This document shows positions 3,068 to 52,725 of a DNA stretch of 64,000 nt, piece after piece. The stretch lies in contig CAYUFM010000001.1 in NCBI GenBank assembly GCA_964444225.1, forward strand, positions 26,216 through 90,215, read 5' to 3'. The notes under the pieces were generated by a model. That model had not been told where the DNA came from, did not search any database, and was given only the letters and a program-made list of their open reading frames with translations. The DNA comes from an uncultured Candidatus Saccharibacteria bacterium (GTDB taxonomy: Bacteria > Patescibacteriota > Saccharimonadia > Saccharimonadales > 2-12-FULL-41-12). The position numbers and the translations under genes were made by a program. Each line of letters begins with the position of its first letter. Position 1 is the stretch's first letter.

Positions 3068-3796
3068 TTAAGAGTTTTTAGCTAAGAAGGTTTCTAGGTC
3101 AGCTAACAGTTGTTTTGCAACACTTTTGGCATTTTCGTTTTTTTCTGCAGATTTACTACCGTGAGCAATCTCATCAACAATTTTTACAGTCAAATCTAAA
3201 TCTTTGTTAACTACGTATTCAAAATATGACTTGTTTAAGGCTTCCTTTAGCTCGTGACCTGCTGTTTCGAGGCGCTTTTGCAGTTCGGCAGGGTTCATAT
3301 GGTTATCCTCGTGACGCTTAGTTAGCCTCTCTTGCCAAGTATAAAAATCAGGTGGCAAAACAAAAATTGGAGTAACTCTTGCTGGGGCTACCTTTTCATA
3401 TTCTTCGACCCCTTGAACTTCAATGTCTGTAATCGCAATCTTGTCTTCGTCGTGCGCCATTTGTAGCTCTGCAACGCTAGTTCCATATATGTTTCCACTA
3501 AACATTTTTGCCTCAATGTATCCGCCGTTATCCAACATCTTACTAGCTGTAAGTTGGTCAATAAAATGATAATCTTGGCCGTCTATTTCCATTACTCCGT
3601 GATTTTCTCGGGGAAGTCTGGTGGTGTGAGAAACAATATGATGATAGTCGGTATTTTTTACTAGCTGTCTTAGTATTGTGTCTTTACCTGCAGCAGTAAC
3701 TCCTACTAAAAAAACAATGTAAGTATTTTGAACTAAACTTATTGCGTCTTTAGGGGCTTTGTATTTTTGAACTTTTTGCAGTAGATCTTCCGTCAT
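3068..3796 (-). CDS. guanylate kinase-like nucleoside monophosphate kinase (paralog 2)
   Basis: P-loop GVTAAGKDT, plus SHTTRLPRE...DGQDYHFID typical of the GMP-kinase fold. Confidence 0.7.
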   Translation of the reverse strand: MTEDLLQKVQKYKAPKDAISLVQNTYIVFLVGVTAAGKDTILRQLVKNTDYHHIVSHTTRLPRENHGVMEIDGQDYHFIDQLTASKMLDNGGYIEAKMFSGNIYGTSVAELQMAHDEDKIAITDIEVQGVEEYEKVAPARVTPIFVLPPDFYTWQERLTKRHEDNHMNPAELQKRLETAGHELKEALNKSYFEYVVNKDLDLTVKIVDEIAHGSKSAEKNENAKSVAKQLLADLETFLAKNS

Positions 3797-3813
3797 TAGA
3801 AAACTATAACACT

Positions 3814-4074
3814 TTAGTCTAACTTTTGATAAACCCTACCAGTTACTGCAAGCAAACTTAATCCTATGATTAACAGTATCCAGGGATGCTCAACAAACAA
3901 ATCTACGCGGTCAATTAGTTTCTCGAACCCATAAAATACAGAGACTAGTCCAAAGGTCGCGGACAGTGCAATCAGAATAGGAAACCGAGTTTGGACCCTT
4001 ACTCGCTCTTGAGCGATTTTTTCGATCATTTTTTCTTCTGCCTGAGTAAAAGGTATGAAATTTTTCTTTGCCAT
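3814..4074 (-). CDS. small membrane protein (86 aa)
   Basis: Two predicted transmembrane helices. Lies between the two kinase paralogs. Confidence 0.4.
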   Translation of the reverse strand: MAKKNFIPFTQAEEKMIEKIAQERVRVQTRFPILIALSATFGLVSVFYGFEKLIDRVDLFVEHPWILLIIGLSLLAVTGRVYQKLD

Positions 4075-4797: not shown

Positions 4798-6573
4798 TTA
4801 ATCCCTCTTTAAAAGTACCGTAAAGGCTTCGGCTGGGATATCGACATTTCCGAATCGCTTAGCCTTGGCTTTGCCCTTCTTTTGTTTTGCTAGAAGTTTT
4901 TTACGCCGACTCACGTCACCACCATACAGTTTAGCCGTCACGTCTTTGCGGTAGGCCTTTACGTCCTCACGGGCAATAAACCTTCCGCCAATCGCAGCCT
5001 GCAGTGCGACCTGAAAGTTTTGACGTGGGATTACCTCCTTTAACTTACCTACAATTTCCCTACCTAAACTCTCGGCTTCAGACTTATGCACCATAATACT
5101 TAACGCGTTAACTATTTCTCCAGCAACATAAAAATCCAAACGAACTAAGCTTTCTACTCGGTAATTATCTAATTCATAATTGAAACTTCCATAACCACTA
5201 GTTGCGCTCTTTAGTTGATCGTAGAAATCTGTTAGCAGGTTAGCTAGTGGAGCGTCAAAACTTATAAGCGCTAGTTGCTCATCAACAAAACTAATATTCT
5301 TTTGGACTCCGCGCTTAGATGAAATTAACTGAATTACGCCCCCCACATAATCTTTAGGAACTACAATCTCACCCTTAATCCACGGCTCGGCGATTTCTGC
5401 GACTTTACTCATTTCTGGCAAATCTGCTGCACTTTTGATGTCTATTTGTTCACCGTTTAGCATTTTTACCTGATAGTCAGTGCTAGGATTTGTAACGATA
5501 AGTTCTAGATCATACTCACGCTCTAGTCTCTCGCGAACAATATCCATATGCAACAGCCCCAAAAATCCGATCCGCACCCCAAAACCCAAAACTGGTGAAT
5601 TTTCTAGCTCATACTGCAAGGCTGAGTCACTAAGACTTAACTTTTCAATCGCATCTTTTAGCTCTTGATACTGCTCGTTACTTTCAGGGAAAAATCCAGC
5701 ATAGACAAATGGCTTCACATCTTTGTATCCAGGTAATGGTGACGTTGTAGAACCGTCCGATAAAGTTACCGTGTCACCTACCTTTGCTTCACGAGTAGTG
5801 CGTAAGTTGGTAACTATATATCCTATTTCGCCACTACTTAGAGTGGAGTCGGGCTTCATGCCTGGGCCTAAGTGTCCTACTTCTAAAGCTAGGCCTTGGG
5901 CTCCGGTGGCAAACATTTTTATGGTCTCGCCTTTTTTTATTTGTCCATCTACTATTCTGACGTACAAAATTACACCTCGATAATCGTCATAATAACTATC
6001 AAAAATTAAAGCTCGGGTTTGATCCTGATTTTGAGCTTTTGGTGGCGGGACCCTGTCTATGACTGCCTCTAGGACTTTTTTTACACCCTCTCCAGTTTTG
6101 GCACTAATGTGTAAAATTTCTGACTCATCGCATCCCAAAAGGCTAACAACTTCTTTAGAAACCTTCGGAACATCTGCTGCTGGCAGATCGATCTTGTTAA
6201 GCACCGGAATGATTTTTAAATCGGCTTCCATAGCTAAATAAACATTTGCTAATGTCTGAGCTTGAATTCCCTGAGAAGCATCCACCACCAAAATAGCACC
6301 TTCACAAGCCTCAAGACTGCGCGAAACCTCATAACTAAAGTCTACATGTCCCGGTGTATCAATAAGATTAAGTTGATAGCCTTTATAATTCATCCTAACC
6401 GGCGCAAGTTTAATAGTGATCCCTTTTTCGCGCTCTAGATCCATTTTGTCCAACAACTGCGCCTTCATATCACGCTTCTGCACAGTTCCAGTAATCTCAA
6501 GCAGGCGATCGGCTAGAGTGCTCTTGCCGTGATCAATATGAGCAATAATTGAGTAGTTACGAATTTTCTCCAT
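4798..6573 (-). CDS. lepA: elongation factor 4 (LepA)
   Basis: N-terminal GTPase NYSIIAHIDHGKSTLADRLL and DTPGHVDF. Length 591 aa. Confidence 0.95.
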   Translation of the reverse strand: MEKIRNYSIIAHIDHGKSTLADRLLEITGTVQKRDMKAQLLDKMDLEREKGITIKLAPVRMNYKGYQLNLIDTPGHVDFSYEVSRSLEACEGAILVVDASQGIQAQTLANVYLAMEADLKIIPVLNKIDLPAADVPKVSKEVVSLLGCDESEILHISAKTGEGVKKVLEAVIDRVPPPKAQNQDQTRALIFDSYYDDYRGVILYVRIVDGQIKKGETIKMFATGAQGLALEVGHLGPGMKPDSTLSSGEIGYIVTNLRTTREAKVGDTVTLSDGSTTSPLPGYKDVKPFVYAGFFPESNEQYQELKDAIEKLSLSDSALQYELENSPVLGFGVRIGFLGLLHMDIVRERLEREYDLELIVTNPSTDYQVKMLNGEQIDIKSAADLPEMSKVAEIAEPWIKGEIVVPKDYVGGVIQLISSKRGVQKNISFVDEQLALISFDAPLANLLTDFYDQLKSATSGYGSFNYELDNYRVESLVRLDFYVAGEIVNALSIMVHKSEAESLGREIVGKLKEVIPRQNFQVALQAAIGGRFIAREDVKAYRKDVTAKLYGGDVSRRKKLLAKQKKGKAKAKRFGNVDIPAEAFTVLLKRD

Positions 6574-6604: not shown

Positions 6605-8251
6605 TTAGAATTTTATTGGCTTTAATATAATATTTTTAATTTTATTAATAACGGGTTTTGCTTCTTCTAGCTCAAATACTACCGACATTGTTATGTAAAC
6701 TAGAAATGTAGGAATAACAATCGCTGCTAGCTTACCGCCCAAAACAAAGAAACCTTTGTCTGATACAGATAAAGGATAAATCGAGAGCATAATGTAGGCA
6801 GTTATAACTGCAAAGCCAGTAACCGACAATATTCTAAATATGCCACTCCAGAAATTGCGATTTATGAGTTTATTATCACGAATAACCATAACCATAAACA
6901 AAATCAGTACCTCGGCGGCAGCAACTATAGACTGCGCCATCGCAAGACCTGCAACATCATAAGCCTCGGGTCGAGACAAAAAGTAAGCCAAGATAATATT
7001 AAGTGCAATTGCAAAAATAGAAATGTATAGCGGTGTTCGACTATCCTTCTGCGCATAAAACCACCTAGAAACTAGAGCGTAAATTGTTCTAAATAAAATC
7101 GCCCCAGCAAAAAACCCAAAAATTAGAGCAATTTGTGGTGCGTCATTAGCAAAAATTAAACGAGCCAAATAACCACGCAAGAAATAACTAACAACCACAA
7201 TCGGCATAATTATCCAGATCATAGCTCGTAAAATCTGCAAGAATTCTTTTCTGAATAAATCTTGTCTACCTTGAGCCAACCTGTCAGTAAGTCTAGGAAA
7301 CGCTGCTGTTGATATAGTGGTGCCGATTAATAAGGTTGGTGCGCTCTGCAGTACGTAGGCGTTTTCATAATAACTTAGCTTTCCTTCACCGAGTCGTCGC
7401 GCCAGATTGGTTTCTACAACGGAGTTAATCGAGTCAATACCTTGATCAAGTGACCTAGTAGGAAGTTGTCTCATTATTTCTTTGAAGTCACGACTTCTCC
7501 AGTTGATTTTCGCCTGGTATTTGTACTTAAGTCCAACGAAGCCAAGGATCGAAATCAACAACTGTGCCAATGCACCAATCAACGCACCAACACCCAAACC
7601 AATTAGCCCAAGTTCGCCCGGACCGCCATCATTGCCAACCTCACTAAAGATAATCGCGCTGAAAAGAATGCTTCCGCTATACACAAGCGGAGCTATAGCA
7701 TAAAAGAAAAATCTACCGAACGTTTGCTGGACACTGGTAAAAATACCGGCCAATGTAAAAAGCAATGGATTAAATGCAATGAGTCGCATTATGGTTGTGG
7801 CGTTATGCATTTGTTCTGGACTAAGGTTAGGCGCAACAATATAGCGCAAAAGCGGGTCAGCAAAAACAAAGATCACAATACCAACCAGCAACATTACCAA
7901 CGCTAGCAAATTTAACAAACTGTTGGTTAGCTGGAAAACACCTTTTTTATCGCCACGATTTAAATGGTCTGCCAGGAAGGGCATAAAAGCCACACCTAAG
8001 GCACCGGCGGCCAATGTAAAGAAAAACAGATCGGGAATTTTAAATGCAGCAAAATATGCATCCGTACTATCTGGGCCGAGCGCCGAGAAGTTGGCGTTTA
8101 CCAACTTTGTGCGCAAAAACCCAATCAACTGGCCGAGTGCAGATGCGACTATTAAAAGGGTTGCTGCATTAGTTAGACTGATCCGTTTATTGGCGCGCGC
8201 AAAAACCCTCTTCGATTGCTTTTTTATACTAAAGTTCTGTTTTTTGGGCAT
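6605..8251 (-). CDS. murJ: lipid II flippase MurJ/MviN family
   Basis: 548-aa polytopic membrane protein with the MurJ-like pattern (FAAFKIPD..., multiple TM helices). Confidence 0.75.
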   Translation of the reverse strand: MPKKQNFSIKKQSKRVFARANKRISLTNAATLLIVASALGQLIGFLRTKLVNANFSALGPDSTDAYFAAFKIPDLFFFTLAAGALGVAFMPFLADHLNRGDKKGVFQLTNSLLNLLALVMLLVGIVIFVFADPLLRYIVAPNLSPEQMHNATTIMRLIAFNPLLFTLAGIFTSVQQTFGRFFFYAIAPLVYSGSILFSAIIFSEVGNDGGPGELGLIGLGVGALIGALAQLLISILGFVGLKYKYQAKINWRSRDFKEIMRQLPTRSLDQGIDSINSVVETNLARRLGEGKLSYYENAYVLQSAPTLLIGTTISTAAFPRLTDRLAQGRQDLFRKEFLQILRAMIWIIMPIVVVSYFLRGYLARLIFANDAPQIALIFGFFAGAILFRTIYALVSRWFYAQKDSRTPLYISIFAIALNIILAYFLSRPEAYDVAGLAMAQSIVAAAEVLILFMVMVIRDNKLINRNFWSGIFRILSVTGFAVITAYIMLSIYPLSVSDKGFFVLGGKLAAIVIPTFLVYITMSVVFELEEAKPVINKIKNIILKPIKF

Positions 8252-10244: not shown

Positions 10245-11138
10245 TTATACAGACGATCTAGTCTGTATGCCAATCTGTTTAGTGGTAACCTCAAAATATC
10301 TATTTTTATCAATATCGGTTTTTGCTCCTGGCTTTAGAGTTTTGAGTTCATTTACTAATTTTTCGACTCGTTTTTTATCGTGCTTTGCGCCAAGTTCTTT
10401 GAGCCAAAAAACCATTAACTCGCAAGCAATTTTATGTGGTAAAGATACAAAAAAACTCCGGTCGAAGCATTGTTTTTGTTTATCATATCCATGACTAAAA
10501 ATACCTTCAATAAGCTGGTCCATCTCTAAGTTTCTAGCCGAGTTTGCAGACAACAAATCTTCTAGTTTTCCTTTTTGGCTGGGCGAAACTTCTTTTAAAA
10601 ATTTTCTGATTTTGTTACGAGTATATTTGGTTGATAAATTTGTCGGATCTTCACACCATACCAATTTTTTCTGTTTAGCGTATTTTAAAACTTCCGCCTT
10701 TCTATAGTCTAGTAGCGGACGAATGATTTTATCGGTAGTTCTGAGCGAAGTTAATCCAGATCTGGCTGTACCTCGTAACAAATTAAAAACCGCCGTTTCT
10801 AGTAGATCGTCTTTGTGATGAGCTGTAACTATCGCGTCAGCGCTATACTTTTTTACTGCTGATTCAAGAAATTTATAGCGCCGCGTCCGAGCCACTTCTT
10901 CGCTGGCGTCTGGACCTAAATTCTCTCTTTTATATTCAAATTGTAGCCCGTAATTTCTGGCTAGATCCTGTACGAACTTTCTGTCATTTACAGAATCTTC
11001 CCGAATACCATGGTCAAAGTGTGCCACTATGAATTCGCAATTACTCTGTTTATATAGCAAATCCAGCAGAACTACTGAGTCGACTCCGCCACTAACCGCC
11101 ACAACATATTTTCCTGGCTCAATATAAAACTTCATCAT
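10245..11138 (-). CDS. tilS: tRNA(Ile)-lysidine synthetase TilS
   Basis: PP-loop VAVSGGVDSVVLL (SGGxDS). Length 297 aa. Confidence 0.85.
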   Translation of the reverse strand: MMKFYIEPGKYVVAVSGGVDSVVLLDLLYKQSNCEFIVAHFDHGIREDSVNDRKFVQDLARNYGLQFEYKRENLGPDASEEVARTRRYKFLESAVKKYSADAIVTAHHKDDLLETAVFNLLRGTARSGLTSLRTTDKIIRPLLDYRKAEVLKYAKQKKLVWCEDPTNLSTKYTRNKIRKFLKEVSPSQKGKLEDLLSANSARNLEMDQLIEGIFSHGYDKQKQCFDRSFFVSLPHKIACELMVFWLKELGAKHDKKRVEKLVNELKTLKPGAKTDIDKNRYFEVTTKQIGIQTRSSV

Positions 11139-11710: not shown

Positions 11711-12246
11711 AAAATTTATATTATATACGTCACGGTGAAACAGACTCCAATAAGTTTAGGATGTGGTCAGAGTTTGACACTCCACTCAATGCAACTGGTT
11801 ACGAGCAAGCAAAGTTGGCGGCAAAACAGCTAAAAGATTCTGGCATAAAATTTGACCTGATCGTCACTTCTACTCAGCCTCGAGCCTACGAAATGGCTGA
11901 TATTATTGCTGATACTGTCAATTACCCTAAAGAGTCTGTGCTGAGAGATCCAGATGCACACGAAAGACGATGTGGAGTACTGGAAGGTACAAAAAACCTA
12001 GAAGCCTCGGAAGAATACCGCAAAGACGAGAGAGCCATAGATAAATACGAAGGCGTGGAAAAATTAACAGACATGGAAGATCGGGTAAATAAATTTTATG
12101 AAAAACTAAAAAACTTACCCCAAGACACAATCTTGGTTGTAGGACACAGTGCATTCGGTCGTGCTTTGCGAAGAAAAATAAACAACGAGCCATACTCAGA
12201 CAATGAAGGAAGCCTTCAAAACGCCAAACTATACAAATTCATCTAG
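11707..12246 (+). CDS. histidine phosphatase family protein (phosphoglycerate-mutase-like)
   Basis: RHGET motif at the N-terminus (YYIRHGETDSN). Confidence 0.65.
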   Translation: MKNLYYIRHGETDSNKFRMWSEFDTPLNATGYEQAKLAAKQLKDSGIKFDLIVTSTQPRAYEMADIIADTVNYPKESVLRDPDAHERRCGVLEGTKNLEASEEYRKDERAIDKYEGVEKLTDMEDRVNKFYEKLKNLPQDTILVVGHSAFGRALRRKINNEPYSDNEGSLQNAKLYKFI

Positions 12247-12285
12247 CTAACAGATGTAAAATGTGATATATTTAGCACCTAGTAT

Positions 12286-12315
12286 GGCAGCGTAGCTCAG
12301 TTGGTTAGAGCGCAG
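12286..12315 (+). repeat. 30-nt orphan copy of the tRNA-Met 5' end (acceptor stem and D-arm)
   Basis: GGCAGCGTAGCTCAGTTGGTTAGAGCGCAG is identical to nt 1-30 of the intact tRNA 51 nt downstream, then diverges. No anticodon arm can be folded. Confidence 0.6.
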
Positions 12316-12336
12316 AAGATTAACATTTTGGTTGGG

Positions 12337-12413
12337 GGCAGCGTAGCTCAGTTGGTTAGAGCGCAGGACTCATAAGCCTGAGGTCACTGGTTCAAACCCA
12401 GTCGCTGCTACCA
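12337..12413 (+). tRNA. tRNA-Met (CAU), elongator type
   Basis: Cloverleaf GGCAGCG-TA-GCTC-AGTTGGTTA-GAGC-G-CAGGA-CTCATAA-GCCTG-AGGTC-ACTGG-TTCAAAC-CCAGT-CGCTGCT-A-CCA. Close to E. coli elongator tRNA-Met in the D-arm and T-arm. Confidence 0.85.
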
Positions 12414-12587
12414 ACCTAACTGTTAATCAGGACCCATAATCGAGGATGCGCACAGATGCTCGGCATCGAGCACACCGCAAGATTATATGCGCGAAGGCGC
12501 TATAAAGCCTGTGATTGAAGATTCGCTCGAGAAGTTTCTCTCGCTTAGACAAGCAAAGAAAACATAAATATCTAACAGATATTTATG

Positions 12588-12619
12588 GGTCACTGGTTCA
12601 AACCCAGTCGCTGCTACCA
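12588..12619 (+). repeat. 32-nt orphan copy of the tRNA-Met 3' end (variable loop, T-arm, acceptor 3' strand, CCA)
   Basis: GGTCACTGGTTCAAACCCAGTCGCTGCTACCA is identical to the 3' end of the intact tRNA 175 nt upstream. It is preceded by a perfect 10-bp hairpin (ATAAATATCT-AAC-AGATATTTAT). Confidence 0.6.
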
Positions 12620-12639
12620 AAAACGCATTAAATTAAAAT

Positions 12640-12671
12640 AACCCCAGGTCTAGAAACTGGGGTTATTTTTT
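12640..12671 (+). terminator. rho-independent terminator
   Basis: AACCCCAG-GTCTAGAAA-CTGGGGTT hairpin followed by ATTTTTT. Confidence 0.6.
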
Positions 12672-13148
12672 GCCAATTTTAAAGTTGGTTTAGTAAAGCA
12701 TCAATTTTCTTGATGTTTTGGTTCTCTGTTGAAGAGAACTCGTAAGCTAATGAAACCGCATTCATCGTTTGCTCACTTTCTGTTTTTTAAATGTTTTTGT
12801 TTTGCACGTATCTCATATCTAGCCGTTGTAAACAGGGTTTATTTAACTTAGATAGAAACTTTTATTACGATCGAGGCGTAACCGTAGTTACATCGAGCGA
12901 GCAATAACTGTTTATAGCCAGTTAAATATAACTTGGCACAATGGAAAGGTATGAGATACGTGCTATAGTCGACTAACATACTCTATTATACACGTTTTTT
13001 GTGTTTTGTCAATAAAATTGCCCTGGGGCAATCGGCTTTACACCGCTGACGATTTTAATAAATTGTATGTTTGTTTTAGTCTACGACTAACTTAAAGTAT
13101 AGGCATTTTGGTATTTTTTACAAGAACAAAATTATAAATTCACTTCTG

Positions 13149-13925
13149 CTAAAACGCAAAAAACAGCAAAGAAAATAATGGGACGATTACCTGCAACGCC
13201 AAGAATACAATCAAAACAATAAGTAGTGGGTGCATCCGCTTTTTTGGCGCTGACATGGCTACCTTTTCTTCAACTATATTGCCGTTAGCGTCTTTTTTTA
13301 CGATGTAGGTGGTAGCTGAAAATATTTGACTGTCAGTTTTTGGGTGTTTGTCCAAATATAGTTTATGTAAAATAACCACTAAAATTGTTAGAGTCGCGTC
13401 CACGATAGCCGCTGCAGATAGTCCTCTATAGTAAAAATCACTAAAGTCACCGTCAGTAAACCAAAGCGGTGGCAACAATAACACAACAACAAGAGCCATA
13501 AATAGGTAGTTTGCTAAAATTAGACCACTGGCAAGCTTACTGATGGACGCTGCTTTTGCTAAAACTTCTGCATGAAGAGTAGCAAAAATCGCTATAAAGT
13601 AGGTCCCGTAGAGTTTGGATACGACATCTCCTGGCATAATCTCCCATATACCAAAAACAGATGTGAAAAAACTCAAAACTAAGACTATAAAAACAATATT
13701 AGAGGAAAATTGAAGTTGGTCGGCCTCTCTTATTTTGTCTCTGCTCCCCAAAAACCCAAGAGTAGCTATAGCATGAGCTGCTACTACCAATAGAGTAAAT
13801 AAGGCTTTGGCTAACGTATCAGTAAAGCCTCCGGAAAGTACTGCAATAACAGCCATAGTCGCTGCTCCTACAAGTCCTACTATCATTACATTGATTGAAA
13901 GTTTCCTGATTTCGGCAAGTTTCAT
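13149..13925 (-). CDS. polytopic membrane protein, hypothetical
   Basis: 258 aa with at least 6 hydrophobic helices. Confidence 0.5.
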   Translation of the reverse strand: MKLAEIRKLSINVMIVGLVGAATMAVIAVLSGGFTDTLAKALFTLLVVAAHAIATLGFLGSRDKIREADQLQFSSNIVFIVLVLSFFTSVFGIWEIMPGDVVSKLYGTYFIAIFATLHAEVLAKAASISKLASGLILANYLFMALVVVLLLPPLWFTDGDFSDFYYRGLSAAAIVDATLTILVVILHKLYLDKHPKTDSQIFSATTYIVKKDANGNIVEEKVAMSAPKKRMHPLLIVLIVFLALQVIVPLFSLLFFAF

Positions 13926-14723: not shown

Positions 14724-15179
14724 ATGGTCTGTTCGGATTTATATTGCTATATTATCCATATGGACAATCTGGCAAAAAAATACCTTGCACTTTTTGTTAG
14801 TATCTTAAGCGGACTTCTTGCGGTTATTTTAATTTTTAGATTTTTAAAGCAACAACACGGCTTACTTCCACTACTAAACGATACTTGGTATGCTGGCGTT
14901 ATTCTTATTGGCTTAATTTTTATTTTTTCTTTTAGTCTTTATAAATTACTAAATAAGCCAACTAGTAAAAATAGCCACGATACCCATATGTTGATATTTA
15001 CGCTGGGTATTTTTCTTATAGTAACTTCTCTCCCAATTAGTATTTTGTTGCATTTTGTTGATTTTATTGGCCCCGGTGGATACCCAATTATATCTTTCGA
15101 TAGTTTAGGTCGGATACTAATGATTATTATGCCAGTTATAGGCATATTATTAGTCGTTAAGGTTAGGCCGGGTAGATAA
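14724..15179 (+). CDS. membrane protein, hypothetical
   Basis: 151 aa with four predicted TM helices. Confidence 0.45.
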   Translation: MVCSDLYCYIIHMDNLAKKYLALFVSILSGLLAVILIFRFLKQQHGLLPLLNDTWYAGVILIGLIFIFSFSLYKLLNKPTSKNSHDTHMLIFTLGIFLIVTSLPISILLHFVDFIGPGGYPIISFDSLGRILMIIMPVIGILLVVKVRPGR

Positions 15180-15387
15180 GGTTGTGCCATATTACCAAAA
15201 AGAAAACCCGTCACAAAGACGGAACCTCTTTTTGGTTGCGGGGGTAGGACTCGGTCACGTTCCGCAACCCCGTCACAACTTCTTTGCAAAGCCAGTCTGC
15301 AAGAGTTGACTCCCTTACAGACAGTCCCCAGCTGTCTTCACCTTCGACCTTTTTAGCGTCGTAGGCTATAAATCTTAGCTCAACACT

Positions 15388-15415
15388 AAAACAAAAGCCC
15401 GCCTTTTCGGCGGGC
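15388..15415 (-). terminator. rho-independent terminator downstream of tRNA-fMet
   Basis: On the minus strand: GCCCGCC-GAAAA-GGCGGGC followed by TTTTGTTTT. This makes the overlapping 68-aa ORF (15211..15417) unlikely to be real. Confidence 0.6.
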
Positions 15416-15421
15416 ACTTGT

Positions 15422-15496
15422 TTTGGTAGCGGGGGTAGGACTCGAACCTACGACCTTGTGGTTATGAGCCACACGAGCTGCCACTGCTCTACCCCG
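15422..15496 (-). tRNA. tRNA-Met (CAU), initiator (fMet)-like
   Basis: CGCGGGG-TA-GAGC-AGTGGCA-GCTC-G-TGTGG-CTCATAA-CCACA-AGGTC-GTAGG-TTCGAGT-CCTAC-CCCCGCT-A-CCA. Near-identical in layout to E. coli tRNA-fMet, including an unpaired 1:72 position (C1 opposite U72) and A73. Confidence 0.8.
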
Positions 15497-15514
15497 CGAT
15501 AAATTAACTTCACC

Positions 15515-15543
15515 AAATTGTATCAAACAGAGGTAGAAAAGTC
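15515..15543 (-). promoter_or_regulatory. sigma70-like promoter for tRNA-fMet
   Basis: Minus strand TTGACT-N17-TACAAT, ending about 18 nt before the mature tRNA 5' end. Confidence 0.5.
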
Positions 15544-15657
15544 AATATACCTTCAAAATTTGATTTAATCAATTAAGGTTAAGAAAACTTATTGCATAAT
15601 ATGAAATTAGGGCTTCGTCAATTTTTAGAGTATAATTATAGTTAAAGACGGAGTTAT

Positions 15658-15714
15658 ATGCCTAGAGATAAGGGTCGCAAAGAGACCAAAAAACCTAAGA
15701 AAGCGAAAGCCTAA
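15658..15714 (+). CDS. possible 18-aa lysine-rich peptide (MPRDKGRKETKKPKKAKA)
   Basis: Perfect TATAAT at 15631-15636 and GGAG 4 nt before the ATG. Too short to score; speculative. Confidence 0.2.
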   Translation: MPRDKGRKETKKPKKAKA

Positions 15715-20770: not shown

Positions 20771-20793
20771 GTCACTATACATTGTATAGTGAC
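20771..20793. promoter_or_regulatory. 23-bp perfect palindrome GTCACTATACA-T-TGTATAGTGAC (putative HxlR-type operator, copy 1)
   Basis: 11-1-11 inverted repeat abutting the VOC gene start. The same sequence recurs at 29310-29332. Confidence 0.5.
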
Positions 20794-20944
20794 TGTACAA
20801 AAAATCAAGTTTATATATAAAATCTTGCAACGAAAAGGCAGGCGAAACGTTTATGATAATTATCACAGTTTTTTGTTGATATGCTTCACAGCTATTTCTC
20901 ATGTTAATGGCTATAGTTAGAGTTGCACGAAGGGAGGTGCAGAT

Positions 20945-28005: not shown

Positions 28006-28081
28006 GGGGGTGTAGCTCAGTGGTTAGAGCAGTCGGCTCATAACCGATTGGTCCCTGGTTCAAGTCCAGGCACCCCCACCA
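28006..28081 (+). tRNA. tRNA (CAU), most similar to tRNA-Ile2 (lysidine-modified) and therefore the likely TilS substrate
   Basis: GGGGGTG-TA-GCTC-AGTGGTTA-GAGC-A-GTCGG-CTCATAA-CCGAT-TGGTC-CCTGG-TTCAAGT-CCAGG-CACCCCC-A-CCA. Near-identical to E. coli tRNA-Ile2 across the D-arm, variable loop and T-arm. Confidence 0.7.
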
Positions 28082-29309: not shown

Positions 29310-29332
29310 GTCACTATACAATGTATAGTGAC
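29310..29332. promoter_or_regulatory. 23-bp perfect palindrome GTCACTATACA-A-TGTATAGTGAC (putative HxlR-type operator, copy 2)
   Basis: Lies in the divergent intergenic region between the FMN reductase gene and the HxlR-family regulator gene, about 33 nt upstream of the reductase start. Confidence 0.55.
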
Positions 29333-29400
29333 TCTGAATATTAGTATACTAGCAGTCAGTATATAAAGTAAAGTGACTTTGTGATAAAATTGAAATAATT

Positions 29401-35453: not shown

Positions 35454-37223
35454 CTATATGTACCTTCCAGTATAATTAGCTAAAACTTCTAACAGTGCCA
35501 CAGGCAGAACAGAGGGGTCAGACATTGTCCTCATATTTGGGGTAACTGACCTATAACCACCAATATTAAATTGGCCAACATAAGTATTTTTTGGGAATGA
35601 ATTAACAGTTGCTTGCGCCTGATAGTGATCATGAAAATCGCCGTCAGTAATTATCAAAATTATATTGTCTCGTCCAGAGTCGGCGGGACCGCCGCAACTT
35701 AAAAGGGCATCATTTACAAATGTTGCACTACTGGTAGGGTTCGATAAATTTGTAAATGTAGCCCCTTTCTCAGCAGGCGTAGGTTGATAACTAACAGCAG
35801 AAAGTTCTAAGGCATCAGAGCCAAAGGCTACAATATGCGTCCTAACATCTGGATTAGACACGCCAGTGTCTTTGGCGACTTGGGCTCGGGCCAGCTGGAG
35901 GCCTTCTAGCAGGCACAACGCTGTCGTTGCAGCTGACTGTGCTTTATTGCCGCTTCCCATCGACCCACTAACATCGACTAATAGATGAATATCTAGTCCA
36001 CTAAATGTCAGTTTTTCAGTTTTGTCAGACCTGGTAATCGATCGCCAAACTGCTTGTTGATCACCAGTTAATTTTTGCGTCACCAAACCCGTAACCGCAG
36101 TACTGTGTAAGATTGGTCCGTCATTAGTAGGTTTACGGCCATAAGTTAGTCGATGGTTTAAGAATGCTGGCTTTGTTAAAGTTTTTAACACTTCAGCAAT
36201 ACTTTTTATTATATGAGCGTGTTGCAAACTTGCTCTAGTGTAGGCCTCTGCATCGCCAGGTAGTAACCCCATTTCTTTGGCTATTTTTTCCGCCAGTTCG
36301 TTGAATTGTTCGCGCGACAAGCCATCTTCGGTTTTTTTGGTGTCTACCGTGTCAACCGGTTCTGTATCTTCAGTTTTTTCCGATGTATCTTTTTCGTCTT
36401 CTTTGCCATCAAAGATCTTCAATATTCTTTTACCTAATCCCTCTAATCTACCGGCTTCTGTTTTTGGCCCACCAGGTAGCTTATCTACTTGCCTAACTTC
36501 AATTTGTTCTTCGGTATACTCTTCAATTATTTCTTCAAGGCGCTCACCTTGCCCGGATTCTTTATCTTGTTCGACCAATTTATCGTACGCTGGTTTTATA
36601 TAACGATTAGCAATATTTCTACGATTGATTAGATCGGTTCTAGGATCAGTTAGAGTTTCTATAATATCAAATTTATCACCCGTTTTTGTAGTGTAGTTTT
36701 TGAGGTTGTCGATTATACCGTTAACTTCGGGGTGTAGCTCCAAGCTTTCACCTGTTACCTCACCGATTCTTATGCCCCACATTAACTGAGCAGATAAAGG
36801 CATCTCCGCAATTTTTTTAGCTTCTGGCATAACATCACCATATAGATCCATGACATCCTGCTTGATCCCAGGTAACCTGCATAATCGACTATCTATAACT
36901 ACATCATCAGCTAAGCAATAAAAAAAATGATCGGTTGGTGATCTTTTGGCCAACACATCTTCAGGACTTGCAATCATATCTATCGCATGACCAACTTCGT
37001 GTAATGACACCACAAGTGCTCTTTCCTCTGATACATCGCCTGTTGTTTTATCGGCAATTTGTTGGGGATCAATATTAATTCTTATTCCAGTCGGCTCGGC
37101 AATACAATATGAACCATTGTCACTAGATTCGGTTGTTGCTGTCATGCCACGCATCCCATAAACAGCCGATGCTAAAGTAGCTAGATCAGCTATTTCTTGA
37201 TGGGGCTGAGTATGTTCACTCAT
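35454..37223 (-). CDS. vWA-domain protein with N-terminal HExxH zincin-like metallopeptidase motif
   Basis: HEVGHAIDM in the N-terminal third. MIDAS DVSGSMGSGNK (DxSxS) in the C-terminal vWA. The likely start is MSEHTQ at 37223, not the ORF start at 37295. Confidence 0.75.
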   Translation of the reverse strand: MSEHTQPHQEIADLATLASAVYGMRGMTATTESSDNGSYCIAEPTGIRINIDPQQIADKTTGDVSEERALVVSLHEVGHAIDMIASPEDVLAKRSPTDHFFYCLADDVVIDSRLCRLPGIKQDVMDLYGDVMPEAKKIAEMPLSAQLMWGIRIGEVTGESLELHPEVNGIIDNLKNYTTKTGDKFDIIETLTDPRTDLINRRNIANRYIKPAYDKLVEQDKESGQGERLEEIIEEYTEEQIEVRQVDKLPGGPKTEAGRLEGLGKRILKIFDGKEDEKDTSEKTEDTEPVDTVDTKKTEDGLSREQFNELAEKIAKEMGLLPGDAEAYTRASLQHAHIIKSIAEVLKTLTKPAFLNHRLTYGRKPTNDGPILHSTAVTGLVTQKLTGDQQAVWRSITRSDKTEKLTFSGLDIHLLVDVSGSMGSGNKAQSAATTALCLLEGLQLARAQVAKDTGVSNPDVRTHIVAFGSDALELSAVSYQPTPAEKGATFTNLSNPTSSATFVNDALLSCGGPADSGRDNIILIITDGDFHDHYQAQATVNSFPKNTYVGQFNIGGYRSVTPNMRTMSDPSVLPVALLEVLANYTGRYI

Positions 37224-45357: not shown

Positions 45358-47085
45358 ATGAGGAAGGCAAGCAAGTTTGGGTTGATAATTATTCTGGTTT
45401 TACTAAGCTTTTTTTACCTTAGAAGTCCCAGTACACCGCCCACTCCCCCAACTACTTATAAGCCTCTGGCCCTACAAAGCATCACAACCTCAAAAATCGA
45501 GACAAATAAAGACCAGGCTTTATTAAAATCTTCAGAAAAAATTACAGAAACCAATCAATTAAGTTCAATTTCAGGCAAACAACCAAAAACCGAAATTGTT
45601 ACTAATGGCACAACTTACCCAAATCGCATATATAGCCCTATGCTAGCGCCAAACGATCCTTCCTACAACCAGTGGTGGGTTGCCCCTAATGATATGACCA
45701 GCGTTTGGGATGTACCTGCCGGGACTTACCAAACTAAAATTGCAGTTATCGACACAGGTTTTGCGCTAAATCATCAGGAGTTTGCTGGTCGCTGGGCTAC
45801 TAACAGTGGCGAGACAGGATTGGCTGTTGGTGAAGAACCAAGTGATCTTAACTGTACTGACCAAGGTCTGCCTCTGGACAGATCTTGCAATAATATTGAT
45901 GATAACTTTGACCAAATTCTAGATAATGAAACTGGCCCAACAACAGAACAAAATCCTTCTGATCGCAACTGTACTGACCAAGGTCTGCCTCTGGACAGAT
46001 CTTGCAATAATATTGATGACGATGGCAATAACTACAAGGATGACGTTACTGGTTGGGATTTTGCTAATTTCGACTCTAGTGTACAAGCCGGGCAAATAAA
46101 CCCCACAGGTAGCGGCACAACACACGGCACAATGGTTGCAGGGATTTTGGGCGCTACAGGCAATAATGGCGTAGGTATTGCAGGCGTTAATTGGCATACA
46201 AAAATCTTGCCAATCCAAGCGCTAGACGACGACAGTTATGGTGACAGTTTTACTGTTGGACAAGCAGTTTACTACGCAGTAGACCAAGGCGCAGATATTA
46301 TTAGCATTAGCCTGGGAACAAGCACAAATGACCCATACATGCGAGCTGCCATACTCTACGCCCTAGACCACGGAACGATCGTCGTTGCATCTACGGGCAA
46401 TAGTGGCTGTGACTGCATATCGTACCCGGCAAACTACCCAGAAGTTGTAGCTGTAGGTGCAGTAAATTCTACTGGTAGCCCTGCGAGTTTTAGCAATTTT
46501 GGGTCACAACTAGATGTCTTGGCCCCTGGTCAGACTATGGCTTCGCCTACCTATACATCAGGCAACCAGGTAAGTGCTTACGCGAGCAATATTGCAGGCA
46601 CTTCATTTTCTACGCCCTTCTTTAGCGGAGTCTTAGGACTAGCTAAAATGTCACAACCAACCGCATCTTGGGAAGAATTAATTGGCGCAATGATGGAGAA
46701 TTCTGACCGTCAGACACTAACATTAACTTCACCACGAACAAACACTCTAGGTTTTGGAGTGACTAGAGTCAATACAATGCTAGACCGCTTGCGTCTTACA
46801 AATTCCGCAATTCAAAGAACCCAATTTAGCGGAACAATACTTGGTTCTAAACTGACCTATCAGTGTGAGGGCGTCACTATACCGGCCACCAGATTATATG
46901 AATTAACAAAATATGGACTTTATAACTACACGACAAACCCACGCGAACTTTCAAAAGCCATACAAAATGGCTGGACTTCAAAAGAAATTGCCTATACCTG
47001 CATTGGACTAGCAAGCGATAATGTTTCTGTTATTAGAAATCTAAGTCTAACTTCAGAGCTTCATAACTTGACCCAAAAGAACTAA
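45358..47085 (+). CDS. subtilisin-like serine protease (peptidase S8)
   Basis: Catalytic triad motifs AVIDTGF (Asp), HGTMVAGILGA (His), GTSFSTPFFSGVLGLA (Ser). Signal/anchor at the N-terminus. Confidence 0.8.
   Translation: MRKASKFGLIIILVLLSFFYLRSPSTPPTPPTTYKPLALQSITTSKIETNKDQALLKSSEKITETNQLSSISGKQPKTEIVTNGTTYPNRIYSPMLAPNDPSYNQWWVAPNDMTSVWDVPAGTYQTKIAVIDTGFALNHQEFAGRWATNSGETGLAVGEEPSDLNCTDQGLPLDRSCNNIDDNFDQILDNETGPTTEQNPSDRNCTDQGLPLDRSCNNIDDDGNNYKDDVTGWDFANFDSSVQAGQINPTGSGTTHGTMVAGILGATGNNGVGIAGVNWHTKILPIQALDDDSYGDSFTVGQAVYYAVDQGADIISISLGTSTNDPYMRAAILYALDHGTIVVASTGNSGCDCISYPANYPEVVAVGAVNSTGSPASFSNFGSQLDVLAPGQTMASPTYTSGNQVSAYASNIAGTSFSTPFFSGVLGLAKMSQPTASWEELIGAMMENSDRQTLTLTSPRTNTLGFGVTRVNTMLDRLRLTNSAIQRTQFSGTILGSKLTYQCEGVTIPATRLYELTKYGLYNYTTNPRELSKAIQNGWTSKEIAYTCIGLASDNVSVIRNLSLTSELHNLTQKN
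45850..46019 (+). repeat. tandem direct repeat inside the S8 protease gene (two exact 53-bp copies, 117-bp period)
   Basis: AACTGTACTGACCAAGGTCTGCCTCTGGACAGATCTTGCAATAATATTGATGA occurs at 45850 and 45967. It encodes NCTDQGLPLDRSCNNIDD twice, between the Asp and His catalytic motifs. Confidence 0.85.
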
Positions 47086-52511: not shown

Positions 52512-52603
52512 AAAAATACCCTTCTCATCTCGAGCAAGGGCATATGCTTCTTTGCTCGGAAGACTTTATAGCTGTATCGGACTTTAACCGTTGCGGCACA
52601 GTT

Positions 52604-52618
52604 CCTGAGTTACTCAGG
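52604..52618. promoter_or_regulatory. 15-bp palindrome CCTGAGT-T-ACTCAGG upstream of the 373-aa gene
   Basis: Perfect 7-1-7 inverted repeat, about 95 nt upstream of the start at 52511. There is a second hairpin (CGAGCAA...TTGCTCG) nearby. Confidence 0.3.
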
Positions 52619-52725
52619 ATTCCAGCGTTTTTATTTATTAATGTAGATCAAGTTTAGCACACCACCCATAGTGTGTAAGCCGTAAAAAATACACCACATA
52701 TCGCCTATGAGGCAAAATGTAGTGC

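Follow-up and report, generated by a model that had tools for sequence, protein, structure and literature searches.

The 64,000-nucleotide (nt) stretch of an uncultured Candidatus Saccharibacteria genome that was analysed here, in the following called the window, carries an intact gene for a methionine transfer RNA (tRNA-Met, anticodon CAT) at 12337-12413 on the plus strand, and this gene is flanked by orphan copies of its own 5′ and 3′ ends. With a probability of roughly one half, the locus is read as a resident elongator tRNA-Met gene that was broken by small mobile or foreign segments and whose function was kept by a replacement copy. Genes for tRNA are classic landing sites of mobile DNA, and orphan pieces of them are routinely read as integrase scars. 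Three tRNAs with a CAT anticodon were called in the window by ARAGORN and Rfam, at 12337-12413 (+), 15424-15498 (−) and 28006-28081 (+), and were read as elongator Met, initiator and Ile2-like, respectively, the last of which would need lysidine. The first of these (68.2 bits in Rfam) is the presumed working copy at the locus and is putatively of the elongator type, on the model of metT versus ileX in E. coli.

The 30-mer GGCAGCGTAGCTCAGTTGGTTAGAGCGCAG, corresponding to tRNA nt 1-30, was present in exactly two copies, at 12286-12315 and 12337-12366, and no such repeat was obtained in 100 shuffles. The 32-mer GGTCACTGGTTCAAACCCAGTCGCTGCTACCA, corresponding to tRNA nt 46-77, was likewise found exactly twice, at 12382-12413 and 12588-12619, with the identity extending one base past the CCA to position 12620 and giving a 33-nt repeat, which like the first is not expected by chance. 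Start-to-start spacing was 51 nt for the 5′ pair and 206 nt for the 3′ pair, leaving 21 nt between the repeats on the 5′ side and 174 nt from the end of the tRNA to the 3′ copy. The original prediction, made from the letters of the stretch without database searches, had placed the exact 5′ copy correctly at 51 nt upstream and had recognised the exact 3′ copy, giving its distance slightly too large at about 175 nt. It had also held that the fragments could not be completed into a cloverleaf, and indeed neither was called as a tRNA, the only hint being a sub-threshold Rfam match of 17.3 bits at 12552-12616. The spacer on the 3′ side, described as relatively GC-rich, is only slightly so (GC content 0.43 versus 0.40 for the window).

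Contigs of the same organism break at these repeats. Two Logan contigs (L001 and L002), which come from two other samples and have an identical phosphatase gene, end exactly at 12315, where the orphan 5′ piece ends, and two others, which approach from the opposite side (L003 and L005), reach 30 nt into the 3′ repeat before they end; overall, the repeat borders are the exact stopping points of Logan contigs from three other samples. These break points suggest a branch in the assembly graph at a repeat of about 30 nt. The repeat structure is real and no one-off misassembly. Spurious partial copies made by an assembly artefact are hardly credible: repeats of about 30 nt are on the k-mer scale of short-read assemblers, but the unique 21-nt and 174-nt sequences between them must derive from real reads, and the contigs of the three other samples stop as if both continuations exist.

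Comparison with the orthologous locus in relatives explained the orphan 5′ piece. The closest loci retrieved, L007 and L008, have the same gene order and phosphatases with 49-50% identity, and both carry a plain tRNA-Met at the same place, thereby representing the unoccupied site in distant relatives (about 50% identity in His_Phos). Directly upstream of their tRNA-Met stands a conserved promoter-like sequence, AACAGATGTAAAATGTGnTATATTTA. The corresponding region of the window at 12247-12285 (+; AACAGATGTAAAATGTGATATATTTA..., with an extended −10-like TGnTATATT) was 88-92% identical to L007 and L008 by blastn and is a putative promoter. It is followed by the orphan 5′ piece at 12286-12315 (+), which takes the place of the relatives' plain tRNA-Met, the intact gene being shifted by 51 nt, and for the 21 nt after the 5′ piece the alignment showed no counterpart in L007 or L008. 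Because the orphan piece is at the ancestral position behind the promoter and the intact gene is displaced, the 5′ piece is read as the original 5′ end of the gene, and no longer as the unexplained fragment it had appeared to be. The direction of the first proposal, a scar of integrated or duplicated DNA, agrees with the plain tRNA-Met of L007 and L008 and with repeats that end at the mature tRNA ends. In L038, tRNA-Met nt 1-19 occupy the ancestral position, and after them come an inverted D-arm piece, a new promoter and an intact gene. Another locus, L009, was tried as an empty-site control and rejected, as its tRNA is identical to that of L061 (described below) but its flanks are unrelated. 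The neighbouring phosphatase used as query against the GTDB genomes gave one match, in a distant Elusimicrobia.

The replacement copy is part of a 112-bp unit at 12316-12427, which consists of a 21-nt leader (12316-12336, +), a complete tRNA-Met of the same isotype and identical to the orphan pieces, and a 14-nt trailer (12414-12427, +), and which contains no open reading frame (ORF). The order of the unit is AAG, ATTAACATTTTGGT, TGGG, intact tRNA and ACCTAACTGTTAAT. The left inverted repeat ATTAACATTTTGGT at 12319-12332 and the right inverted repeat ACCTAACTGTTAAT, which makes up the trailer and ends the unit, agree in 12 of 14 positions (shuffle p ~3e-4), a score reached at 2 of the 9126 window positions sampled. 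The unit is bracketed by the 3-nt repeat CAG, at which the tRNA pieces nt 1-30 and nt 28-38 overlap, the latter being marginal alone. A related palindrome, GTTAAT-gca-ATTAAC, was found in L008 directly after its tRNA-Met.

The flanks of the repeats are unrelated, identity beginning at tRNA nt 1 and stopping at the CCA plus one base, which argues for incoming tRNA-carrying DNA and not for a local tandem duplication. The earlier suggestion of tandem-duplication remnants is for this reason disfavoured. A local rearrangement, by tandem duplication or template switching at the palindromic tRNA arms and with decay of the copies through deletion but no foreign DNA, is considered improbable. The exactness of the repeats would agree with it, as would the inverted D-arm piece of L038, typical of template switching, and the halves of the L008 palindrome, which resemble the leader and trailer of the window and fit a circularly permuted local unit. 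The rearrangement requires, however, three tandem copies and two matched deletions, the repeat flanks are unrelated outside the identity from nt 1 to CCA, the trailer expected after the 3′ piece is absent, and a hairpin motif that the locus has in common with tRNA-Glu loci of other genomes is left unexplained.

The 174-nt spacer had been taken for an anonymous relic of about 170 bp, devoid of a complementary anticodon-stem strand, but it holds tRNA-derived pieces, including two degenerate ones from the anticodon arm, and the hairpin motif common to other loci. The first piece, CAGGACCCATA at 12428-12438 (+), matches tRNA nt 28-38 in 10 of 11 positions, overlaps the 5′ orphan by CAG (nt 28-30) and is homologous in position to an exact piece in L061, CAGGACTCATA; its local alignment score of 20 against a 95% null of 19 is marginal alone. 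The second, ATAAAGCCTG at 12502-12511 (+), corresponds to nt 36-44 with one extra A, has as its counterpart the exact L061 piece nt 36-55, and with a score of 16 against the same null is not significant alone. The ATA (nt 36-38) is common to this piece and to the piece before the motif, and may belong to the motif. It is because of their order and their exact counterparts in L061 that the inner pieces carry weight. The four orphan pieces, nt 1-30, 28-38, 36-44 and 46-77, together cover the tRNA a single time, in the right order and with the overlaps CAG and ATA, and as the 5′ piece abuts the downstream pieces with a 3-nt overlap, one splitting insertion is indicated and not two unrelated events. 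As a target-site duplication, the junction repeats CAG and ATA are too short to tell from microhomology.

Between the second inner piece and the exact 3′ piece at 12588-12619 (+) lies, by sequence and fold, a third insert of about 75 nt (12512-12587, +). It ends in a perfect hairpin at 12563-12587, for which the original prediction had given a 10-bp stem and which has an 11-bp stem and a 3-nt loop, CATAAATATCT-aac-AGATATTTATG. In L061 and L024, too, perfect hairpins with 3-nt loops occupy this position. Comparison of spacer 1 with spacer 2 showed no similarity (score 19 versus a null mean of 15.4 and a null maximum of 23), and tblastx of the spacers against the window and the relatives gave no match.

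The conserved hairpin motif of about 60 nt was located at 12435-12495 (+), on the tRNA strand, by alignment and by two models, R1 and R2. It is found at the anticodon-loop position of the displaced copy, and its consensus reads ..ACGCGCAGG, a variable stem, and CCGAGCAYGTGACGA..TATAT. Model R1, which includes the window sequence, scored it at 52.8 bits; with R2, made without the window sequence, 12435-12495 ranked first in a search space of 128 kb comprising both strands (18 bits, E ~5e-4). The upper stem covaries, with GATGC/GCATC in the window versus GGAAT/ATTCC, GGTGC/GCACC and GGAGC/GCTCC, and alignment of the copies shows homology between window positions 12428-12495 and the L061 region. 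The 64-kb window contains the motif only once.

In a survey of 80 Joint Genome Institute (JGI) contigs encoding phosphatase homologues, with further copies sought by fuzzy search and a covariance model, the motif recurred in L023, L024, L032, L061 and L072 (L023 and L024 being near-identical over their shared region). It was always in or beside fragments of tRNA-Met or tRNA-Glu, had an identical left boundary in all copies and was without terminal inverted repeats. L061 displays the same architecture as the window: the tRNA-Met is followed by a 19-nt spacer, an exact piece nt 28-38, a 57-nt insert and an exact piece nt 36-55, with the motif at 7240-7300 between the two exact pieces, and thereafter come two perfect hairpins and a degenerate piece nt 57-77. 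In L032, a tRNA-Glu, a terminator and a spacer with the motif (3824-3883) precede a 19-nt tRNA-Glu 3′ piece, and the sequence ACGCGCAGGAATnTATTCCGAGCAyGTGACGA is common to this spacer and the L061 insert. The motif of L072 (2017-2073) is downstream of its tRNA-Met. L023 and L024 contain two tandem motifs before a tRNA-Glu-like 3′ end, and in L024 the motif at 2467-2526 is followed by a perfect hairpin and a 19-nt tRNA-Glu 3′ end. Permissive Rfam scans of 12200-13160 and 15150-15660 returned only tRNA and chance-level matches, the motif being absent. A loose motif pattern gave 107 matches in IMG/VR, and the covariance model confirmed none in the 80 returned loci that were searched. Nothing on the motif was found in the literature searched.

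That the motif and the tRNA-derived 3′ end form a functional RNA module, a small RNA matching the cognate tRNA, is considered very unlikely. Such an RNA could imitate the tRNA 3′ end or serve as its decoy, or it could direct an RNA-guided enzyme to tRNA genes. In the window and in L061, which belong to distant genomes with differing tRNAs, the orphan pieces show identity to the cognate tRNA; the motif stem covaries; and in our reading of L023 a promoter-like TATAAAT precedes a possible acceptor/T-arm minihelix with the motifs in its T loop. The modules are, however, heterogeneous in length and in the tRNA part that follows the motif, the copies do not all have T-stem closure (it is not kept, for instance, at L024 2467-2526), no linked protein partner is seen, and a terminator intervenes between several intact tRNAs and the module. 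The L023 module (3655-3860; near-identical over the shared region in L024, ending at 5752) is made up of the TATAAAT, GGCCTCCG-GAGGAGTTCA, two motifs and ACTCTCCTCGGAGTCACCA, and no intact tRNA-Glu is nearby. Its ends could pair as acceptor and T stem, which would leave a minihelix with about 130 nt in the T loop.

Two further features were observed next to tRNA genes of the surveyed contigs. A conserved block (TTTTGAGAGGAGGAACATAGGC...GTCGAAGCTTTTGGC...GCCAAAACGAGAyTTAGCC...TTCCGACGA) is immediately upstream of the tRNA-Met genes in several of them, at L038 5430-5545, L061 7055-7136, L072 1795-1871 and partly L032 3560-3580. The block may act as leader, promoter region or small RNA, and a scan of these loci at the Rfam gathering threshold reported nothing there. 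At L075 3255-3375 and L030 3330-3435, about 14 nt of the tRNA 5′ leader can pair with the 3′ trailer, the leader TCCAGCCCATCTTT of L075 pairing with the trailer AAATATGCGCTGGA, which suggests a flank-joining precursor helix in this bacterial group.

A second case was found in the window at the intact initiator-type tRNA-Met(CAT) at 15424-15498 (−). Downstream of it, a 167-nt insert (15254-15420, −) comprises a terminator, a tRNA piece and about 85 nt of structured sequence (fold z = −4.4), and it is followed by an orphan 3′ piece of the initiator tRNA (15230-15253, −; 23 of 24 positions identical) with its own terminator at 15207-15223, so that terminators follow both the intact initiator tRNA and its orphan piece. 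The tRNA piece in the insert, AAGGTCGAAGGT at 15340-15351, equals nt 42-53 in 11 of 12 positions and is marginal (score 19 versus a 95% null of 20). The spacer of this tRNA did not match the motif model. Position 72 is a T in the intact gene and an A in the orphan piece; the idea that the orphan keeps an ancestral A72 was withdrawn, T72 being the common state in relatives.

In the literature searched, orphan tRNA pieces are treated as by-products of integration or of clustered regularly interspaced short palindromic repeats (CRISPR) (PMC9897764; tycheposon preprint). In common with the attL/attR scars of prophages, integrative and conjugative elements, genomic islands and tycheposons, the elongator locus has an intact tRNA whose 3′ part is repeated directly up to the CCA, a feature that the initiator tRNA also shows, and furthermore a gene restored by incoming DNA and unscarred related genomes. 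Unlike such scars, it is without an integrase and without a kilobase-scale element, the inserts being 14-174 nt (167 nt at the initiator tRNA), and a 5′ orphan piece is present and the pieces tile the gene once instead of each reaching the 3′ end. An account by independent classical integrations, in which two to three tyrosine-integrase elements would have entered at different sublocations of the tRNA (the anticodon loop, the T arm and, for one, the 5′ side), each bringing the displaced tRNA part, and would later have been deleted to 14-174 nt, is thought unlikely. The hairpin motif would then be part of the attP arm of one element family, and it is always just upstream of an orphan 3′ piece, where an attP arm is expected. 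The intact tRNA with its orphan 3′ copy is the standard attL/attR signature (PMC9897764; tycheposon preprint), and the initiator tRNA and L032 have the simple form of tRNA, terminator, about 150-190 nt, 3′ piece and own terminator. No locus, however, encodes an integrase or has any other ORF, the motif has a constant left boundary and tRNA sequence on both sides, and random deletion would hardly leave remainders of 14-21 nt time and again. Serial events would give nested pieces all reaching the CCA, with the youngest nearest the gene, whereas the pieces tile the tRNA once and the most degenerate ones are nearest and the exact one farthest; this single tiling and gradient argue against serial classical integrations.

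The locus most resembles tRNA-dependent lysogeny, described for actinobacteriophages, in which a tRNA carried by the inserted DNA compensates for the host tRNA that was split (Guerrero-Bustamante and Hatfull 2024, PMC10865867). The insert here likewise carries a complete tRNA of the isotype concerned, which in our reading takes over, and the resident gene would likewise have been split without being restored at the junction, around a short core, here the CAG at which nt 1-30 overlaps the individually marginal piece nt 28-38. In lysogeny a complete prophage is inserted that encodes an integrase and brings a tRNA differing in sequence (PMC10865867), whereas the present insert measures 112 bp and has, beside an identical tRNA, no genes. 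With neither an integrase nor an element body, the locus is in its defining features neither an integrative element nor an instance of tRNA-dependent lysogeny.

A likeness is also seen to miniature inverted-repeat transposable elements (MITEs), in that the 112-bp unit is small, ORF-less and framed by candidate terminal inverted repeats with short junction repeats that may be microhomology, the boundaries of the hairpin motif are defined, and a MITE-like insertion is present in the same window at 12804-12963. It differs from MITEs in that the unit carries a tRNA gene and sits in a homologous tRNA gene, and in that the hairpin motif targets tRNA loops. To our knowledge, tRNA cargo, insertion into a homologous tRNA gene and targeting of tRNA loops are not described MITE properties. 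The disrupted tRNA genes of archaea (multiple-intron and split) similarly have insertions at anticodon-loop, T-loop or variable-region positions, but here the host is bacterial, a complete working gene stands between the first 27 nt and the remainder, and the inner pieces are degenerate. Archaeal-type tRNA splicing machinery (bulge-helix-bulge) is not known from bacteria.

The MITE-like insertion at 12804-12963, about 160 nt long, is absent from L008, folds as a long hairpin and has 26-nt terminal inverted repeats with 85% identity (GCACGTATCTCATA...TATGAGATACGTGC); its presence in the same genome indicates that small non-autonomous elements are active there. It breaks a conserved non-coding region on the minus strand just downstream of the promoter of that region. 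The region spans 12661-12803 and 12966-13012 in the window and 8815-8990 in L008, with 89.5% identity over 143 nt, compared with about 50% protein identity of the neighbours. Its minus strand carries a perfect promoter of the sigma-70 type at 13012-12985 (TTGACA, 16 nt, TATAAT). The region is probably an unannotated small RNA gene and gave no Rfam match in the window genome or in L008. It ends at a 13-bp hairpin with A and T runs (12635-12669), an inverted repeat that is terminator-like in both directions, is kept in L008, and is located downstream of the orphan 3′ piece of tRNA-Met.

The history of the elongator locus, as a gene broken and replaced, may be depicted as follows. The 112-bp unit would have been inserted first, splitting the gene at nt 30/31 with the CAG overlap, and would have taken over its function, the intact tRNA probably being transcribed from the old promoter through a 51-nt leader that is trimmed by RNase P. 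The dead 3′ remainder would then have been a safe landing place for tRNA-loop-targeting elements that would be lethal in a working gene: the hairpin-motif element may have entered the anticodon-loop position, and the insert of about 75 nt may have interrupted the 3′ part again. The 30-nt and 32-nt orphan pieces would be kept identical by recency, gene conversion or both, while the inner pieces of 9-11 nt drift. Since the inserts encode no protein, they would be non-autonomous elements or relics on which enzymes act in trans. Recombination between the direct repeats could resolve the structure stepwise, through one-sided forms, in which L061 keeps just the 3′ side and L038 just the 5′ side, and finally to a plain gene.

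Several observations weigh against this history. Leader-trailer pairing is also shown by the ordinary tRNA genes in L075 and L030, so the inverted repeat around the unit may be a pre-tRNA feature and not transposon ends. No second copy of the 112-bp unit was found within the window, the scores of the inner pieces are individually only marginal, and the 3-nt junction overlaps could be due to chance or microhomology. The comparative loci are all distant (His_Phos 33-51% identical), with no close pair of filled and empty sites. No recombinase or transposase was found near any instance: Pfam and PHROG scans of the small ORFs in the spacers and of the neighbouring genes found no recombinase, the spacer ORFs having no match at all, there is no ORF longer than 45 amino acids in 12247-12620, and no HxxR-type tyrosine-recombinase motif was found in window ORFs of more than 150 amino acids. 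A motif-bearing autonomous element was not found in IMG/VR or in the phage and plasmid collections. Exact-pattern scans gave no match for the 3′ piece and both spacer junctions in IMG/VR or for the 3′ piece in JGI metagenomes, and blastn of the spacer against the phage and plasmid collections gave chance matches only. As no recombinase was found, the mechanism is inferred from anatomy, and one that places a tRNA-bearing unit into its own homologue is putative.

A joint reading of all loci is offered tentatively. They may represent an undescribed class of tiny, ORF-less elements of Saccharibacteria-like bacteria that insert specifically into tRNA stem-loops and are moved in trans, the types being a replacement tRNA framed by inverted repeats and a hairpin of about 60 nt that lands in anticodon or T loops; or else the motif and the matching tRNA 3′ end may be a functional RNA, a guide or decoy kept identical to its cognate tRNA. 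Two other ideas were tried. Reverse-transcription stops at modified bases (m1A58, m7G46) as determinants of the fragment starts were rejected, the start points differing between cases. A scaffold-plus-guide system of the TnpB/IS605 type was retained only as a low-probability variant, as the intact tRNAs have no consistent adjacent motif and no such gene was found.

The locus has a chromosomal setting, with genes for FtsH, TilS, a Ham1-like protein and a histidine phosphatase upstream of it. Homologues carry the source annotation Candidatus Saccharibacteria, which suggests a Saccharibacteria-like organism. With tilS at 10245-11138, all three CAT tRNAs are within 18 kb of each other and adjoin this gene, and those of L007 span 2.2 kb. 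The second and third CAT tRNAs of the window are separated by about 12 kb of ordinary genes (ABC transporter, DinB, ComEC, two-component system). Matches to 12-mers of the third tRNA at 36729 and 19078 are within coding sequence and were dismissed as chance matches. Elsewhere in the window, an AdoCbl-II (cobalamin) riboswitch was detected at 52565-52641 (−) with 43.2 bits, above the Rfam gathering threshold. A perfect 24-nt palindrome with an operator-like look, GTCACTATACAwTGTATAGTGACT, is present in three copies (20771-20794, 29310-29333 and 29355-29378), and a direct repeat of 60 nt, 97% identical, occurs at 45843-45902 and 45960-46019 with a copy spacing of 117 nt.

In practical terms, tRNA pieces of this kind confuse tRNA annotation, and short-read assemblies break at them. 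For the organism, the reading favoured here means that an essential single-copy tRNA gene was kept alive by a 112-bp insert carrying its replacement, in an anatomy unlike that of the usual integrase scars, and that the dead remainder collected miniature insertions, one of them from a conserved and unannotated hairpin family that accompanies tRNA fragments in several bacteria with reduced genomes. Provided that the elements are active, they would represent a novel means by which very small genomes withstand, and keep a record of, attacks on their tRNA genes, and would point to a new recombinase or an RNA-guided activity in Patescibacteria.

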